64,000 bases of DNA from an uncultured delta proteobacterium (GTDB lineage Bacteria > Desulfobacterota > Binatia > UBA9968). Under the pieces are notes generated by a model. That model did no database searches, was not told the origin of the DNA, and worked only from the letters and a program-made list of their open reading frames with translations. The stretch spans positions 160,001 through 224,000 of the forward strand of contig CAVUVW010000014.1 of assembly GCA_963745035.1 (NCBI GenBank). Reading direction: 5' to 3'. Positions 32,584 through 56,988 of the stretch are shown here, one piece after another. Position numbers and translations under genes: made by a program. Numbering within the stretch: position 1 is the first letter of the stretch; each line of letters opens with the position of its first letter.

Positions 32584-32693
32584 TGGTTCGACCGTTCGAG
32601 GAGCCTCACGGCAGGCTTCCCCGACGGCCTTCAGTTCCGAATCCGTCGAGGAATCAGCATGAGCGGAGAATGCTGTTAACCGTTCGTCCTGAG
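32584..32693. repeat. REP-like hairpin, left part, interrupted by IS110 copy 1 (continues at 34118-34130)
   Basis: TGGTTCGAC...TCAGCATGAGCGG...CCGTTCGTCCTGAG | IS | CTAGTCGAAGGAC. Confidence 0.75.
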
Positions 32694-32781
32694 ACTTGTA
32701 TGATGGATGTCGGCTCTGAACCGGGAGTGCTCTGCTACAATGCCCGAAACGCGAAAGGCATTGTGCAAGGAGGCACTCAGC

Positions 32782-33915
32782 ATGGGACACAAAGCGTTTA
32801 TACCACAAGAGTACGATGTGTTTGCGGGCTTGGACGTAGATAAAAGAAGCATCTCGGTGACCTTTAGCAACCATCAGCAAGGATTTGTCCGATCGTTGCA
32901 CATGCCGTACAGCGTGGAGCACTTGCTCAAGCACGTACGCAAGCATTATCCCGATCAGAAGGTTGCGTTTGTCTATGAAGCTGGACCGACGGGGTATGGA
33001 TTGTATGATGGGCTTTCGGCCAGGGGTATAACTGCTTGGTGGCGGCACCTTCGATGATCCCTCGAGCTCCCGGGCAAAGAGTCAAAACCAATCGCCTCGA
33101 CAGCCGAGGGTTGTCGGAGAGCTTGCGCGGTGGACAGTTGAAGAGCATTCAGTGCCTTCGCCCATTTATCGAGAGCTTCGCCATCTCACTCAGCTGCGCG
33201 ACACCTTGGTCAGTGAAGTGGCGGGGATGAAGCAGCGGATTCAATCGCTGTTGCTGTTTGAGGGGATCGCTTTCCCAGCGGCTCCCGCTGGGAGCCGCTG
33301 GTCTTTGAAAGTGAAGAGCCAACTGAGGAAACTTCAGTGCTCTAAGAGCATGCGCTTTAAACTCGATCAGTTGCTCGACAACGTGGAGTTTTCTGAGAAG
33401 CAGGTCGTGAAAGTGACCAAAGAGATTCGCAAGCTCTGTCAGAACGATCCTGAACTGGCGCAGTGCATGAAGTATATGATGAGCGTTTGTGGCATCGGCT
33501 GGATTGTGGCCAGTCAGCTCCTGGCTCGTATCGGTGATTGGCGGGAACTTAAAAACGTGCGTCAGCTGGCAGGGTTTTTGGGGCTGGTTCCGAGTGAGGA
33601 CTCTACGGGAGAGAAAACCGATCGAGGCTCGATCACCGCACGGGACATGGCCGCCTGAGGAGTAAACTCATCCAAGCGGCCTGGTCGGCGATTCGCCAAG
33701 ATGGTGAACTTCGGGAGTTTTACAGTTCGGTATGCCGCAGACACCCGCGGCATATGGGTCCGCGAGTCGCCATCGTCGCCGTGGCGCGCAAGCTCAGCAC
33801 CCGGATTGCTGCGGTGTTGATGGAACAACGGCCCTATGTGATGAGACAAAAAGTTCATTCAGCTCCTTTGACCCAAGAGGAGACATCGCCCCAGGGAACG
33901 GCTCGACGACTTTGA
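32782..33915 (+). pseudogene. IS110 transposase with three 1-bp deletions (~33020, ~33151, ~33637); real decay or sequencing error
   Basis: Direct comparison with the intact copy at 52670-53806. Confidence 0.7.
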
Positions 33916-34115
33916 GAACCGGGAGAAAGAAACTCCTGACGGTTCGATCCTTGAGACAGAGATCCCGGGGCTTTGTGCCTTAGAGAGGGGCGCATTTTAA
34001 GTCAGTGTGACGGCCGGGTGCCGTGCCACGCATAGCAGCAAGTCTCTCTTGGCCGGGAAAGAAGAAGGGATAAACTAAGAGCATTCGCGGTGTAGCGACT
34101 TGACATCCACATAGC
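33916..34115 (+). ncRNA. Candidate bridge/seek RNA region of IS110 copy 1
   Basis: Same as 53807-54006 except G33929; junction-matching CATAGCAG-CAAGTCT at 34031-34045. Confidence 0.7.
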
Positions 34116-34171
34116 AGCTAGTCGAAGGACTCCGATAATTTGTTTGGCAACCAGCTAATCGATAACCCACT

Positions 34172-51271: not shown

Positions 51272-51432
51272 GGTTCAAGCTATTCAATGGTTCGACACGC
51301 TCACCATGAGCGGCTCGGATTCCGCTCGTCCTCAGCGAAGTCGAAGGATGGGCTCCGTTCAAAACGTCTTGAACGGTTTGAACGGAGGCATCGCGCCGGT
51401 TGAACGGAGTGACCGAAGGGAACGGTTGAACG
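51272..51432. repeat. Composite GTTCAA element containing an uninterrupted REP hairpin (empty IS110 target homolog)
   Basis: TTCAA-[TGGTTCGACACGCTCACCATGAGCGG...CCGCTCGTCCTCAGCGAAGTCGAAGGA]-TGGGCTCCGTTCAA...TTGAACGGAGTGACCGAAGGGAACGGTTGAACG. Confidence 0.88.
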
Positions 51433-51450: not shown

Positions 51451-52494
51451 ATGAAGTCATCAATCCTGGCGATTCTGCTTGTGATGCTCGCGGTCGAGGT
51501 TGGATGGTGCCAATCCGCGCCGCCCAAGACCGCCGCCGACCTGGCGAAATATATGGGCGCCGATCGCGAGCGCGTGCTTTACGACGGCGCGAAAAAGGAA
51601 GGCAAGCTCGTCTGGTACACGTCGCTCACCATCTATAAAGAGATGGCCAAGTCCTTCGAAGCGCGCTATCCCGGCGTCACCGTGGAGCCCTATCGCGCCA
51701 CCGCGGTGAATCTCGTCAGCCGGATACTCAGCGAGGGACAAAGCAAGCGCTACCTCGTCGATGTCATCGAGACCACGCCAGGCTCGCTGATGCTGGTACG
51801 CGATAACAAGCTGCTCTTGCCCTACAACTCGCCGCATCTCGCCGCCTATCCGGAAAACTCGAAGGACAAGGCGCCGGGCGGTTTGTTCTACACCAGCGTG
51901 GATCGCGAATCGTACGCCGGCATCGGTTACAACAAAAATGCGATTCCAGCCGCCGACGTGCCGAAAAGCTGGAACGACCTGCTCAAGCCTTCGCTCAAAG
52001 GCAAGATCAGCATCAGCAACGAGGAAATCGCCACGCGGGTGGTCGGCTCGATGCTGAAAGAAAAAGGCGAAGGATTCATCAAGCAACTGGCGGCCCAGGA
52101 GATCAAACAGCACGGTCTCCCCGCGCTCGGCCTGAACGAGCTGATCGTCTCGGGCGAGGTGCCGCTCTCGTTTACCGCCGTCGACAGCAACGTGCGATTG
52201 GCCGCCGCGAGGGGCGCGCCCATCGCGTGGCTCCCCGGCGATCTCGTGCCCGCCAACGCGGGCAGCCTGGGCGCCTTCTTACATCCGCCGCATCCGCACG
52301 CGGCGCTGCTGTTCATCGATTTCATGATCGGTCCGGAAGGGCAAAAATTGTTCTCGGAAAAATACGGCTACGGCAGCCCGCGCAAGGAGCACCCCTTCAA
52401 ACGTTGGTATCCCGAGCAGGGACTATCGAGCTATGACTACGCCAACACCATCGAGAAGTGGAACAAGATTTTGCTGCAAATATCGAGGAAATGA
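51451..52494 (+). CDS. Extracellular solute-binding protein (Fe/thiamine-type ABC family)
   Basis: GAKKEGKLVWYTS, PKSWNDLL, PHPHAALLFIDF, EGQK. GGAGG RBS. Confidence 0.87.
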   Translation: MKSSILAILLVMLAVEVGWCQSAPPKTAADLAKYMGADRERVLYDGAKKEGKLVWYTSLTIYKEMAKSFEARYPGVTVEPYRATAVNLVSRILSEGQSKRYLVDVIETTPGSLMLVRDNKLLLPYNSPHLAAYPENSKDKAPGGLFYTSVDRESYAGIGYNKNAIPAADVPKSWNDLLKPSLKGKISISNEEIATRVVGSMLKEKGEGFIKQLAAQEIKQHGLPALGLNELIVSGEVPLSFTAVDSNVRLAAARGAPIAWLPGDLVPANAGSLGAFLHPPHPHAALLFIDFMIGPEGQKLFSEKYGYGSPRKEHPFKRWYPEQGLSSYDYANTIEKWNKILLQISRK

Positions 52495-52508
52495 ACGCTC
52501 TAGCAAGT

Positions 52509-52581
52509 GTTCAAAACGTTCAAGCCGTTCAATGGTTCGACACGCTCACCATGAGCGGCTCGGTTTGCCGCTCGTCCTGAG
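52509..52581. repeat. Composite GTTCAA/REP element, left part (split by IS110 copy 2)
   Basis: GTTCAAAACGTTCAAGCCGTTCAATGGTTCGACACGCTCACCATGAGCGG...CCGCTCGTCCTGAG; near-identical to 51283-51335. Confidence 0.88.
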
Positions 52582-52669
52582 ACTTGTATGATGGATGTCG
52601 GCTCTGAACCGGGAGTGCTCTGCTACAATGCCCGAAACGCGAAAGGCATTGTGCAAGGAGGCACTCAGC

Positions 52670-53806
52670 ATGGGACACAAAGCGTTTATACCACAAGAGT
52701 ACGATGTGTTTGCGGGCTTGGACGTAGATAAAAGAAGCATCTCGGTGACCTTTAGCAACCATCAGCAAGGATTTGTCCGATCGTTGCACATGCCGTACAG
52801 CGTGGAGCACTTGCTCAAGCACGTACGCAAGCATTATCCCGATCAGAAGGTTGCGTTTGTCTATGAAGCTGGACCGACGGGGTATGGATTGTATGATGGG
52901 CTTTCGGCCCAGGGGTATAACTGCTTGGTGGCGGCACCTTCGATGATCCCTCGAGCTCCCGGGCAAAGAGTCAAAACCAATCGCCTCGACAGCCGAGGGT
53001 TGTCGGAGAGCTTGCGCGGTGGACAGTTGAAGAGCATTCACGTGCCTTCGCCCATTTATCGAGAGCTTCGCCATCTCACCCAGCTGCGCGACACCTTGGT
53101 CAGTGAAGTGGCGGGGATGAAGCAGCGGATTCAATCGCTGTTGCTGTTTGAGGGGATCGCTTTCCCAGCGGCTCCCGCTGGGAGCCGCTGGTCTTTGAAA
53201 GTGAAGAGCCAACTGAGGAAACTTCAGTGCTCTAAGAGCATGCGCTTTAAACTCGATCAGTTGCTCGACAACGTGGAGTTTTCTGAGAAGCAGGTCGTGA
53301 AAGTGACCAAAGAGATTCGCAAGCTCTGTCAGAACGATCCTGAACTGGCGCAGTGCATGAAGTATATGATGAGCGTTTGTGGCATCGGCTGGATTGTGGC
53401 CAGTCAGCTCCTGGCTCGTATCGGTGATTGGCGGGAACTTAAAAACGTGCGTCAGCTGGCAGGGTTTTTGGGGCTGGTTCCGAGTGAGGACTCTACGGGA
53501 GAGAAAACCGATCGAGGCTCGATCACCCGCACGGGACATGGCCGCCTGAGGAGTAAACTCATCCAAGCGGCCTGGTCGGCGATTCGCCAAGATGGTGAAC
53601 TTCGGGAGTTTTACAGTTCGGTATGCCGCAGACACCCGCGGCATATGGGTCCGCGAGTCGCCATCGTCGCCGTGGCGCGCAAGCTCAGCACCCGGATTGC
53701 TGCGGTGTTGATGGAACAACGGCCCTATGTGATGAGACAAAAAGTTCATTCAGCTCCTTTGACCCAAGAGGAGACATCGCCCCAGGGAACGGCTCGACGA
53801 CTTTGA
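52670..53806 (+). CDS. IS110-family transposase/recombinase (378 aa)
   Basis: AAGGAGG RBS. RuvC-like GLDVDK / YEAGPTG / KTNRLD; C-terminal GIG, GLVPSEDSTG (catalytic Ser region), AIVAVARKL. Confidence 0.96.
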   Translation: MGHKAFIPQEYDVFAGLDVDKRSISVTFSNHQQGFVRSLHMPYSVEHLLKHVRKHYPDQKVAFVYEAGPTGYGLYDGLSAQGYNCLVAAPSMIPRAPGQRVKTNRLDSRGLSESLRGGQLKSIHVPSPIYRELRHLTQLRDTLVSEVAGMKQRIQSLLLFEGIAFPAAPAGSRWSLKVKSQLRKLQCSKSMRFKLDQLLDNVEFSEKQVVKVTKEIRKLCQNDPELAQCMKYMMSVCGIGWIVASQLLARIGDWRELKNVRQLAGFLGLVPSEDSTGEKTDRGSITRTGHGRLRSKLIQAAWSAIRQDGELREFYSSVCRRHPRHMGPRVAIVAVARKLSTRIAAVLMEQRPYVMRQKVHSAPLTQEETSPQGTARRL

Positions 53807-54006
53807 GAACCGGGAGAAACAAACTCCTGACGGTTCGATCCTTGAGACAGAGATCCCGGGGCTTTGTGCCTTAGAGAGGGGCGCATTTTAAGTCAGTGTG
53901 ACGGCCGGGTGCCGTGCCACGCATAGCAGCAAGTCTCTCTTGGCCGGGAAAGAAGAAGGGATAAACTAAGAGCATTCGCGGTGTAGCGACTTGACATCCA
54001 CATAGC
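53807..54006 (+). ncRNA. Candidate bridge/seek RNA region
   Basis: Stem CCGGGA/TCCCGG encloses TCCTGA and TTCGA (target-like). Stem CGGCCGGG/CTTGGCCG encloses CATAGCAG and CAAGTCT (both strands of the circle junction). Confidence 0.75.
53991..53996 (+). promoter_or_regulatory. -35 half (TTGACA) of the circle-junction promoter; -10 half TATGAT at 52587-52592
   Basis: Joining the ends gives TTGACA-TCCACATAGCAGACTTG (17 bp)-TATGAT. Confidence 0.85.
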
Positions 54007-54008
54007 AG

Positions 54009-54104
54009 CGAAGTCGAAGGATTCGCTCCGCTCAAACGTTTTGAACGGCTTGAACGCAGGCGCCGCGCCGGTTGAACGGAGTGACCGAAGGGAACGATTG
54101 AACG
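54009..54104. repeat. Composite GTTCAA/REP element, right part
   Basis: CGAAGTCGAAGGATTCGCTCCGCTCAAACGTTTTGAACGG...TTGAACGGAGTGACCGAAGGGAACGATTGAACG; matches 51336-51432. Confidence 0.88.
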
Positions 54105-54126
54105 ATGACTGCCGGCCGGCATTCCC

Positions 54127-54156
54127 TTGACACCTCCGTCAGGCGCACCCTATGAT
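54127..54156 (+). promoter_or_regulatory. Putative sigma70 promoter
   Basis: TTGACA-18 bp-TATGAT, 40 bp upstream of the TctC start. Confidence 0.55.
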
Positions 54157-54196
54157 CCGCGGGTGTTTCCGTTCTAATCGTAGGACCGGAGGGCCG

Positions 54197-55225
54197 ATGA
54201 AACGCTTCGCGTGCGTGCTATTATTTTTGCTGGCATCGACTAGCAATCTCCAAGCTCAGACCCCGTTCTATCAAGGCAAAACTATCCGGATCATCGTCGG
54301 CAATCTCGCCGGTGACGCCTACGATCTTTGGGCGCGAATCTTCGCGCAGCACATGGGCAAATACATCCCGGGAAATCCCACCTTCATCGTGCAGAACATG
54401 ACCGGAGCGGGAGGAGTGGTCGCGGCCAATTACGTTTATTCCGTGGCGAAGCCCGATGGGCTGACGCTGGGCACTTTCGGACCGTCGATGTACTTCGACC
54501 AACTGGCCAGGCGTCCCGAAGTGAAGTTCGACTGGGCGAAATTCACCTGGATCGGCACGCCGGAACAGACGGAATTTATCTTGATCATGCGGACCGATAC
54601 GCCGTACCAATCGATCGAGGACGTGCGCAAGGCCGCGCAGCCGCCGAAATGCGGCGCCACCGGCACGAGCACTTCCGGTTACTACATGCCGAAGTTTCTG
54701 GACGATGGGCTGGGGATCAAGTTCAACATCGTCACCGGGTATCCCGGCGGCGGCGAGATCGATCTCGGCATCGAGCGCGGCGAGCTGCAGTGCCGCAATC
54801 TGACGATCAGCACCTACTTCGCGCGCGAGCCTTTTCTAACCTGGCACAAGAAAGGTTTTGTCCGGCCGATCCTGCAAACGGCGAAGAAAAGAGATCCGCT
54901 CGTTTCCGACGTGCCCTCCATCTATGAGCTCATGGACCAACTCAAAACGCCTGAGGCGACGCGGCGAGTAGCGACCGTCTTGCTCGCGCCCGCGGTTTTC
55001 GGCCGGCCCATGGTGGCGACGCCGGGCGTGCCGCCGGACCGCGTGAAAATGCTGCGTGATGCCTATCACCGCTCGCTCAAAGACCCCGCGCTGCTCGAAG
55101 ACTTGAAGAAGCGGCGTTGGTCGGTGGACGCGATCAGCGGCGAGGAGCTGGCGAAGCTCGCGAAAGAAGTGGTGACCCAGCCGCCCGATGTCGTCGAGCG
55201 GATGATGAAACTCTTGGGTAACTAA
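54197..55225 (+). CDS. TctC/Bug-family binding protein
   Basis: FYQGKTIRIIVG, YIPGNP, QNMTGAGG, KPDGLT, GYPGGGE. Confidence 0.9.
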   Translation: MKRFACVLLFLLASTSNLQAQTPFYQGKTIRIIVGNLAGDAYDLWARIFAQHMGKYIPGNPTFIVQNMTGAGGVVAANYVYSVAKPDGLTLGTFGPSMYFDQLARRPEVKFDWAKFTWIGTPEQTEFILIMRTDTPYQSIEDVRKAAQPPKCGATGTSTSGYYMPKFLDDGLGIKFNIVTGYPGGGEIDLGIERGELQCRNLTISTYFAREPFLTWHKKGFVRPILQTAKKRDPLVSDVPSIYELMDQLKTPEATRRVATVLLAPAVFGRPMVATPGVPPDRVKMLRDAYHRSLKDPALLEDLKKRRWSVDAISGEELAKLAKEVVTQPPDVVERMMKLLGN

Positions 55226-56787: not shown

Positions 56788-56988
56788 CTTCAAGAGTTCA
56801 AATCGTTCAATCCGTTCAACCGCTGCGCTCCGTTCAAAACGTTCAAATCAATGCAGGCGTCATGCAGGAGCCAAAAAGGCACCAGTCCGGAAACGCGTTC
56901 AAAAACGTTTTGCACGGCTTGAACGCAGGTCCTGAGGAAACTCGAAGGACGCCGATTGAACGGAGTGACCGAAGAGAACGGTTGAACG
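56788..56988. repeat. Composite GTTCAA element with both module orientations and a mini target-like hairpin
   Basis: CGTTCAATCCGTTCAACCGCTGCGCTCCGTTCAAAACGTTCAA ... GTCCTGAGGAAACTCGAAGGAC ... TTGAACGGAGTGACCGAAGAGAACGGTTGAACG. Confidence 0.85.

Follow-up and report, generated by a model that had tools for sequence, protein, structure and literature searches.

A predicted 3′ guide RNA very probably directs an IS110-superfamily element of a Binatia bacterium into a hairpin-loop motif at an AG core

We analysed a 64,000-nt stretch of DNA from an uncultured delta proteobacterium of the lineage Binatia (GenBank assembly GCA_963745035.1, here genome G000; positions 160001-224000 of contig CAVUVW010000014.1, here C14), which is called the window and which carries two copies of an insertion sequence (IS) of the IS110 superfamily. 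We consider it highly probable that this element, which has an IS1111-type organisation, is guided by its own 3′ RNA into a hairpin-loop motif, where it would insert at an AG core. The targeting is very probably RNA-guided, as had been proposed in a reading of the window made from the letters alone (the sequence-only reading), and the 3′ non-coding region of the element holds blocks that covary with its flanks on both sides. The target guides are strongly supported by this natural covariation, and the RNA itself is predicted.

A BLAST search of the whole genome (7.43 Mb, 28 contigs) with the element returned exactly five copies of 99.65-100% identity, two of them in C14 and one each in contigs C26, C2 and C10 (Table 1). 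The sequence-only reading had placed the two window copies in the same orientation and at the same base, and had called for a genome search with a table of flanks; that search shows that all five copies lie in one orientation relative to the motif ..TGAG|C(N1-3)GTCGAAG and that their outer flanks differ. About 7-8 nt on each side are common to all five sites, and the flanks are unrelated beyond about 13-20 nt. When the ends were used as 23-nt probes, no matches were found in 100 shuffles. Only AG is duplicated at the junctions and nothing longer, as had been claimed, and because AG closes both the left flank and the IS, the boundary of the element is uncertain by 2 nt. Two of the filled sites have an empty paralogue: that of the copy 2 repeat lies in the window and has the core CAG, not GAG, and that of the C26 site lies on the reverse strand of contig C13 near 982583, is 87% identical and reads ..TTGCGTTGAG|CAGGTCGAAGAG... 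Since both uninterrupted paralogues are contiguous at AG, the insertion is exact. The identical 7-8 nt beside every copy could be taken to mean that the flanks belong to a larger mobile unit, or that the copies arose by segmental duplication, without any choice of site; the sequence-only reading had named such a duplication as its own possible refutation. We regard this explanation as refuted, because the flanks diverge fully past about 13-20 nt, 41 uninterrupted copies of the motif stand in the genome without the IS, and two filled sites have empty paralogues in which the sequence is unbroken precisely at AG.

The open reading frame occupies positions 89-1225 of the 1427-nt IS, with 88 nt at the 5′ end and a non-coding region of about 200 nt at the 3′ end; the long non-coding region therefore sits 3′ of the gene. 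Two target guides and two candidate donor guides were mapped at this end of the element, each pair separated by a stem-loop. The first target guide, CGACUUUG, is the reverse complement of the right flank CAAAGTCG of the C2 and C10 copies. The second, AUCC-U-UGAG, reads in the sense of GTCC-TGAG, the left flank together with the core, apart from a single bulged base, and the AC that follows it equals the first two bases of the IS left end, which makes it a handshake-type extension. The stem-loop between these guides is kept with different sequences in two divergent elements. In the first donor guide, AAGUC is the reverse complement of G+ACTT at the junction of core and left end, and the second donor guide is identical to the right end of the IS including the core; both remain candidates assigned by sequence match, since the IS ends are invariant and leave no possible covariation test. 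Two further candidates were rejected. UCCUGA at 53825-53830, considered as a left guide, is one strand of the inner stem-loop, and an outer closing stem drawn by eye (GCCCCAGGGA with UCCCGGGGC) was dropped because its few alignment variants are uncompensated. An Rfam scan of 52400-54200 detected no bridge-RNA family and only a sub-threshold 'uup' match.

In order to compare guides with flanks, we used 83 loci, of which three came from named metagenome-assembled genomes (two 'Candidatus Binatia' and one 'Candidatus Sulfotelmatobacter') and 80 from metagenomes. A single-protein search of genome contigs gave three related loci only, and proteins 74-95% identical to the transposase are very common in soil metagenomes. 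The same-genus genome G018 holds a related element (73% nucleotide identity) in four full copies, and fragments occur in five other genomes. The IS end motifs were present in 101 of 103 loci. An alignment of the last 240 nt of 91 elements, from which the guide blocks were taken, was mostly constant, with few short variable blocks. The pattern for extracting the right guide failed for L007, L019, L020 and L093, and L003 and L099 had no usable right flank. The right guide was scored in 73 deduplicated events with 32 distinct 8-mers and matched its own flank at a mean of 6.88 of 8 positions (8 matches in 23 events, 7 in 32, 6 in 11, 5 in four, 3 in two and 2 in one); several of the mismatches are G-T or U-G wobbles. 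At its four variable nucleotides the score was 3.07 of 4, compared to 1.62 ± 0.12 in 2000 shuffles (maximum 2.04). The left guide, scored at four variable bases in 69 events, reached 2.54 of 4, compared to 2.01 ± 0.09 when shuffled (maximum 2.29), and a one-base-bulge model gave 4.43 of 6 versus 3.0 without the bulge. One sub-lineage, with the target ..TCCACAG, has no extra base and the guide AUCCGCAG, and another carries CAGAG in guide and flank alike. The handshake base after the second donor guide was the first right-flank base in 64 of 66 events (shuffled, 39.0 ± 2.9; maximum 51).

Among the 66 unique events with both flanks, the left flank ended in AG in all 66, in TGAG in 60 and in CTGAG in 51, and (G/C/A)TCGAA was found within the first 13 nt of the right flank in 55. 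The whole clade thus uses one loop, one base and one orientation, and recombination at a fixed 2-bp AG core, as read earlier from two copies, holds for every event. Transposases that are at least 92% identical to this one carry five different right guides, each near its own flank (L021, L022, L024 and L026/27 compared with G000). This variety bears on the possibility that the transposase protein itself reads the sequence or shape of the hairpin and that the complementary blocks are incidental or regulatory. The target does lie in a potential hairpin loop, the stems that enclose this loop covary from one repeat copy to another, a protein could read the nearly constant left half ..CTGAG, and covariation support for the predicted RNA structure is weak. 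We nevertheless judge recognition by the protein to be very unlikely, given the five guides among such similar transposases, a handshake base that tracks the flank almost without exception, a C26 copy that sits in a non-hairpin, guide-like site, and guide RNAs derived from the non-coding region that have been shown experimentally for relatives (PMC11187229).

Table 1. Features of the element, its insertion sites and its predicted guide RNA (window positions unless a contig is named).
Feature	Position	Strand	Sequence or remark
IS copy 2	52582-54008	+	1427 bp; 52580-54006 if AG is put at the left end
IS copy 1	32694-34117	+	1424 bp
Copy 2 junctions			left flank CGCTCGTCCTGAG; right flank CGAAGTCGAAGGA
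Copy 1 junctions			left flank CGTTCGTCCTGAG; right flank CTAGTCGAAGGA
C2 copy junctions			left flank GCATGTCCTGAG; right flank CAAAGTCGAAGGG
C10 copy junctions			left flank GCCTGTCCTGAG; right flank CAAAGTCGAAGGA
C26 copy junctions	C26:73093-74519 (copy)		left flank GACCGTTGAG; right flank CAAGTCGAAGAG
Left half of copy 2 target	52568-52581	+	CCGCTCGTCCTGAG
Right half of copy 2 target	54009-54021	+	CGAAGTCGAAGGA
Left half of copy 1 target	32680-32693	+	CCGTTCGTCCTGAG
Right half of copy 1 target	34118-34129	+	CTAGTCGAAGGA; one base short of the guide-matched loop
Empty paralogue of copy 2 repeat	51283-51410	+	loop CCTCAG|CGAAGTCGAAGG at 51330-51347
Left subterminal inverted repeat	52587-52599	+	TATGATGGATGTC
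Right subterminal inverted repeat	53991-54004	+	GACATCCACATA at 53993-54004; overlaps TTGACA 53991-53996
Transposase gene	52670-53806	+	378 aa; domains DEDD_Tnp_IS110 and Transposase_20; motif GLVPSEDSTG
First target guide	53798-53807	+	CGACUUUG (53798-53805), then constant AG; overlaps stop codon 53804-53806
Stem-loop between target guides	53809-53834	+	ACCGGGAG ... CUCCUGACGGU; pairs 83-87/100-104, two sequences changed on both sides
Second target guide	53838-53848	+	AUCC-U-UGAG (53838-53846), then AC
First donor guide (candidate)	53887-53896	+	UUUAAGUC, then AG; AAGUC + AG at 53890-53896
Stem-loop between donor guides	53897-53921	+	GUGACGG ... CCGUGCCAC; pairs 174-184/191-200, conserved, no covariation
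Second donor guide (candidate)	53922-53931	+	CAUAGCAG (53922-53929), then CA

We found that the insertion point does not simply lie where the sequence-only reading had put it, in the 3′ arm of an imperfect hairpin. The arms named there, TTCGAC..GTCGAA and ATGAGCGG..CCG(C/T)TCGT, are present at the copy sites. The element is inserted into a hairpin loop, that of a short GTCC/GGAC-type stem around TGAGC..GTCGAA. The natural target reads GTCCTGAG|CAAAGTCGAAGG. The uninterrupted copies of the motif, written as CTGAG-N2-6-GTCGAAG, occur in contexts that include CATGAGCGG..CCGYTCRYC-CTGAG.., ..CCCGCAAAGCATGTC-CTGAG.., ..GAGTTTATC-CTGAG.. and ..GATTGCC-CTGAG... Directly beside the loop the bases pair (GTC/GAC, GCC/GGC, ATC/GAT), and the flanking stems covary in many of the 41 copies. 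The target is a loop module common to several repeat families, with at least three subfamilies. The five insertions fall in at least three repeat contexts with the loop motif alone in common, and the C26 copy lies in non-repeat, terminase-like sequence, so the earlier description of one REP-like hairpin family (REP, repetitive extragenic palindromic) is too narrow. The repeat is also moderately common rather than abundant, with 41 sites of the form given above and 12 of the form GTCCTGAG-N3-5-TCGAAGG. As short intergenic multi-copy imperfect palindromes (41 sites, several subfamilies), these repeats can fairly be named REP-like, and the strict, RAYT-associated sense of REP is not supported: none of the five Y1-transposase genes in the genome (RAYT/IS200-type, PF01797) has the motif within 1.5 kb. 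The broad pattern TGAG-N3-6-TCGAA (377 matches) showed a weak enrichment of stems, with at least 4 of 5 pairs at 63 sites versus 42 when shuffled.

The C26 site is a non-hairpin, multi-copy sequence outside the repeat families that resembles the guides, which argues for recognition of sequence and not of shape. Fragments of its flanks matched TerL_nuclease (E 0.009) and its uninterrupted paralogue matched TerL_ATPase (22.5 bits against a cut-off of 23.7); we tentatively call the flanking sequence terminase-like. Paralogues of these flanks are found at C13:981912-982583, C6:8136-8649 and C7:33203-33366, and a 4-nt difference beside the insertion, between the C26 site and the C13 paralogue, shifts the frame. 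This multi-copy family may consist of prophage-like or gene transfer agent-like genes. In the window, the 'uup' match at 54016-54082 (23.1 bits against a gathering threshold of 36.8) covers the repeat arm to the right of copy 2; the same arm (GCTCCG..TTGAACGG..CGGAG) is found again at 51350-51410, and the match is probably merely the repeat hairpin. An empty motif at 56924-56950, CGCAGGTCCTGAG|GAAACTCGAAGGAC, lies 2.9 kb downstream of copy 2, with a perfect left half and two mismatches in the right half.

We next compared filled and empty sites, with a guide-matched site defined as the 5 nt before AG plus the 8 nt after AG. Both perfect sites in the genome are filled, by the C2 and C10 copies, and none is empty. 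The copy 2 site has one mismatch in the right half, and two sites of this kind are empty (C14:999145- and C20:94471-), as are 13 sites with two mismatches. The count of filled and empty sites that the sequence-only reading had proposed was also made: the 12 sites of the form GTCCTGAG-N3-5-TCGAAGG are all empty, and four of the five filled sites would fit the same pattern. Since the copies are near-identical and the perfect sites occupied, these data suggest that the element moved recently. A near-identical element was found in contigs of runs from 10 studies, covering soil, rhizosphere and winery. A contig from another metagenome run (X6, 1210 nt) joins the left end of the IS to 53 nt of flank, of which 30 letters equal, in a by-eye comparison, the left flank of C27:69194-, where the site is empty in this genome. 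An RNA-library contig (X15) that joins 52578 to 54006, skipping 1427 nt, was considered as an excision product and rejected; its joint reads CCT|CAG, the paralogue type of window position 51330, and it is therefore taken as another copy of the repeat. Joints that skip 1502, 1506 and 154 nt are likewise cross-matches to repeats or relatives. Gaps in the cover of the element by read contigs carry no meaning.

Several results weigh against guidance by an RNA of the element. The guides pair in two registers one base apart: those ending in G pair with flank positions +1 to +8, and those ending in C pair with the core G and +1 to +7, this second register going with loops that are one base shorter. 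Non-independence of the relatives makes the shuffle tests look more significant than they are. A single-sequence fold of 53790-54008 was no better than shuffles (z = 0.26), and the consensus fold has 30 pairs, only one of which shows a compensatory change; the RNA structure therefore rests on analogy and conservation. The AG bases adjoining the first guides are not complementary to the core. The D-E-D-D tetrad of the transposase is incomplete, with Asn at the position of the third acidic residue. In one comparison with read contigs, in which circles were not specifically sought, there was no circle junction, excision product or proof of transcription, and the RNA-library contigs cover parts of the element without demonstrating transcription. 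Finally, two of the five local copies match the right guide poorly, copy 1 at 2 of 8 positions in register (5 of 8 when shifted by one base) and the C26 copy at 3 of 8 (6 of 8 when shifted).

Copy 1 and the C26 copy resemble the half-matched insertions reported for IS621, in which half-matches are reported to explain many off-target insertions and excision to need recognition by the donor arm only (bioRxiv 10.64898/2026.08.31.748434). The same IS621 findings, together with the two local copies at sites that match only one half well, could favour a different role for the target-matching blocks, in which they pair as RNA with DNA and mainly serve control of excision or copy number by half-site recognition, and not the choice of new sites. 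We think this improbable to a high degree, because both flanks covary with the guides over many independent sites and both perfect full sites in the genome are occupied. Guidance of insertion by the 3′ RNA remains the preferred reading.

The ends of the element fit into such a mechanism. The subterminal inverted repeat TATG(A)TGGATGTC matches at 12 of 13 positions with one indel, and weaker similarity extends to about 35 nt. Terminal extensions of 5 nt on the left and 4 nt on the right lie beyond the repeats (AG counted on the right; the value depends on the core assignment). A candidate -10 box, TATGAT, is found at 52587-52592 and a candidate -35 box, TTGACA, at 53991-53996, and when the ends were abutted in silico they formed TTGACA-N17-TATGAT. 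From the mechanism known in the family, the element would excise as a circle whose abutted ends form this sigma-70 promoter, and the promoter would transcribe the transposase gene and then a two-loop bridge RNA or seekRNA that is predicted to start inside the last transposase codons. In the target loop, as the covariation indicates, CGACUUUG would pair with CAAAGTCG, the right half of the target, on its top strand, and AUCC-U-UGAG with GTCC-TGAG, the left half with its AG core, on the bottom strand. The donor loop may pair in the same manner with the element's own ends (AAGUC and CAUAGCAG), as judged by sequence match, and the guide extensions of one or two bases (AC, CA) would match the partner DNA in a handshake-like way. 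The element would then recombine at AG, which is CT on the opposite strand, and so insert without duplicating the target, and the choice of the insertion site would depend on the guide sequences CGACUUUG and AUCCUUGAG. Most copies would land between genes because the loop TGAG|C..GTCGAAG occurs in several intergenic hairpin repeat families.

The transposase belongs to the IS110 family, as claimed before. Both Pfam domains scored above their curated cut-offs (PF01548, E 1.7e-14; PF02371, E 1.5e-21), and NCBIfam NF033542, 'IS110 family RNA-guided transposase', scored 218 bits against a cut-off of 140. The 378-aa frame is intact in three of the five copies. In copy 1, three 1-nt deletions cut the frame at 91 aa, and in the C10 copy 2 nt are inserted close to the 3′ end; copy 1 may be a pseudogene, and in both copies the changes may be decay or faults of assembly. 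The last 10 or so codons (..SPQGTTRR.., 53778-53806) are invariant in relatives, and the C-terminal tail that they encode has no domain. This invariance is likely explained by overlap, the same bases also making up the 5′ portion of the guide RNA with its first target guide. Matches in the PDB were the ISCro4 and IS621 transposases, and in the alignment with ISCro4 the motif KTDavDA, which IS621 has too, reads KTNRLDS here (K102-T-N104-R-L-D107). The catalytic acids of IS621 are D11, E60, D102 and D105 (PMC11208158); N104 (codon 52979-52981) stands at the position of D102, and the other three acids have counterparts in D18, E66 and D107. The Asn is kept without change in 13 of 13 close relatives. 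In a wider set of 100 full-length proteins, each representing a 50%-identity cluster, the tetrad is D-E-N-D in 17 and D-E-D-D in 81. Among the 30 of these 100 that were listed, the Asn forms go with Ser-Thr-Gly (or STA/STS) and the Asp forms mostly with Ser-Ser-Gly. Since the clade is evidently mobile, Asn in place of Asp must be compatible with activity.

On these sequence features we classify the element as an autonomous IS of the IS110 superfamily with IS1111-type organisation and leave its finer placement at superfamily level. It has the 3′ non-coding region, the subterminal repeats, the guide order and the GL-P----S(T)G motif of IS1111, and it departs from canonical IS1111 in its length of 378 aa, in Asn at the third DEDD position and in an identity of only 23-25% to the transposases of the plasmid elements IS5075 and IS4321 (E about 1e-6). 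Other plasmid-borne IS110-family genes, for example of the ISSso6 and ISEc45 types, are closer (31-35%), and among the matches listed no plasmid record exceeds 36% identity; the main text of PMC11187229 does not contain ISSso6 or ISEc45.

Elements of the IS110/IS1111 family that target REP sequences, their guide RNAs and the circle-junction promoter have already been described (PMC11187229, PMC11208158). ISPa11 and other IS1111-family elements likewise have a long non-coding region 3′ of the transposase gene, and the family has in common with our element the subterminal inverted repeats, the lack of a target duplication and the circle-junction promoter, which is predicted here (PMC11187229). 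IS1111-type seekRNAs have the same guide order, with the complement of the top strand before that of the bottom strand; ISPa11 also targets REP sequences, with a motif that differs from that of our element; and the IS1111 motif GL-P----(S/T)G is found here as GLVPSEDSTG. In contrast, IS1111 transposases have 330-350 aa (PMC11187229). The terminal extensions of IS1111 elements measure 7 (or 6) nt at the left end and 3 nt at the right end (PMC11187229), and how far the 5 and 4 nt of our alignment depart from them depends on the core assignment. IS621 of E. coli also targets REP sequences, its core CT is the opposite-strand reading of AG, and its RNA has the same layout of stem, guide, stem-loop and guide plus handshake, once for the target and once for the donor, with a handshake base 3′ of the second guide that matches the partner DNA, as here (PMC11208158). 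It differs in that its RNA lies 5′ of the gene and not 3′, and in that its left target guide has 9 nt including the core, compared to a first guide of 8 nt here from which the core is usually excluded (PMC11208158). The bulged base in the second guide and the two pairing registers also set our element apart from IS621, and its protein is about 50 aa longer and gives a weak match (E 2.7e-11, C-terminal domain). ISPpu9 of Pseudomonas putida, as described in PMC12288879, is an IS110-family element with several copies in REP sequences and an RNA gene 3′ of the transposase gene; its host and repeat are different, and the likeness is one of description. The BLAST search of this genome with the element found no stand-alone copies of the RNA region. 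The pairs ISEc11/ISXne4 and ISEc21/ISMch6 are close relatives with differing guide bases and correspondingly different targets, as is the case here (PMC11187229), and the present series is large, with 32 distinct right guides in 73 events, all on variants of one loop motif.

Partial copies were seen among the related loci. In genome G005, L019:1496-1543 and L020 (reverse strand, about 1501-1540) are solo remnants that hold only the last 38-40 nt of the element, that is, the right inverted-repeat region, in the same loop (..TGAG and ..CCTTG before, (C/T)..TCGAAG after). Both begin directly behind an AG found inside the complete element (..CTAAG|AGCATTCG..); they may represent a site-specific internal deletion at a pseudo-core. 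L006 (about 1455-1951), from G025, a genome of another family in the same order, has lost internal sequence and keeps the left end, the 3′ portion of the transposase gene and all of the RNA region. Its right guide fits the different flank at this locus, CTCTGCCG, at 7 of 8 positions; L006 may carry the guide RNA as a non-autonomous element. L007:1501-1620 (G003) is a truncated copy with only the last 113 nt or so, which begins directly behind the AG next to the first donor guide (..CAG|GTGTGACGG) and has the right flank CGAAGTCGAAGG.

The RNA-guided mechanism of IS110/IS1111 elements and their preference for REP sequences are established, and nothing here is categorically new. The value of the finding is a clean natural data set, in which dozens of independent insertions by close relatives display the rules of the guides: a right guide of 8 nt, a bulged left guide, a handshake of one base, and tolerance of wobbles and of a register shift of one base. 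The variety of guides bears on the engineering of bridge recombinases, and Asn in place of Asp, in a clade that is evidently active, is relevant to the chemistry of catalysis. For annotation, the finding accounts for a class of "IS110 family transposase" genes in Binatia-like soil genomes and for the breaks of assemblies at these hairpins. We also put forward, tentatively and with the odds somewhat against it, that the element stands for a separate lineage of bridge recombinases, spread across soils, that belongs to neither canonical IS110 nor canonical IS1111. It may be marked by Asn for the third catalytic Asp in combination with a nucleophile motif Ser-Thr-Gly, by a 3′ bridge RNA whose start lies within the transposase frame, by a bulged guide and by two registers; guides may turn over fast in it (32 right variants, five of them within the clade of at least 92% identity), always on variants of one hairpin-loop motif. 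If this is true, the element and a superfamily of REP-like hairpins would co-diversify across phyla, and the lineage would offer a ready-made natural library of reprogrammed guides, including the mismatches, wobbles and register shifts that are tolerated.

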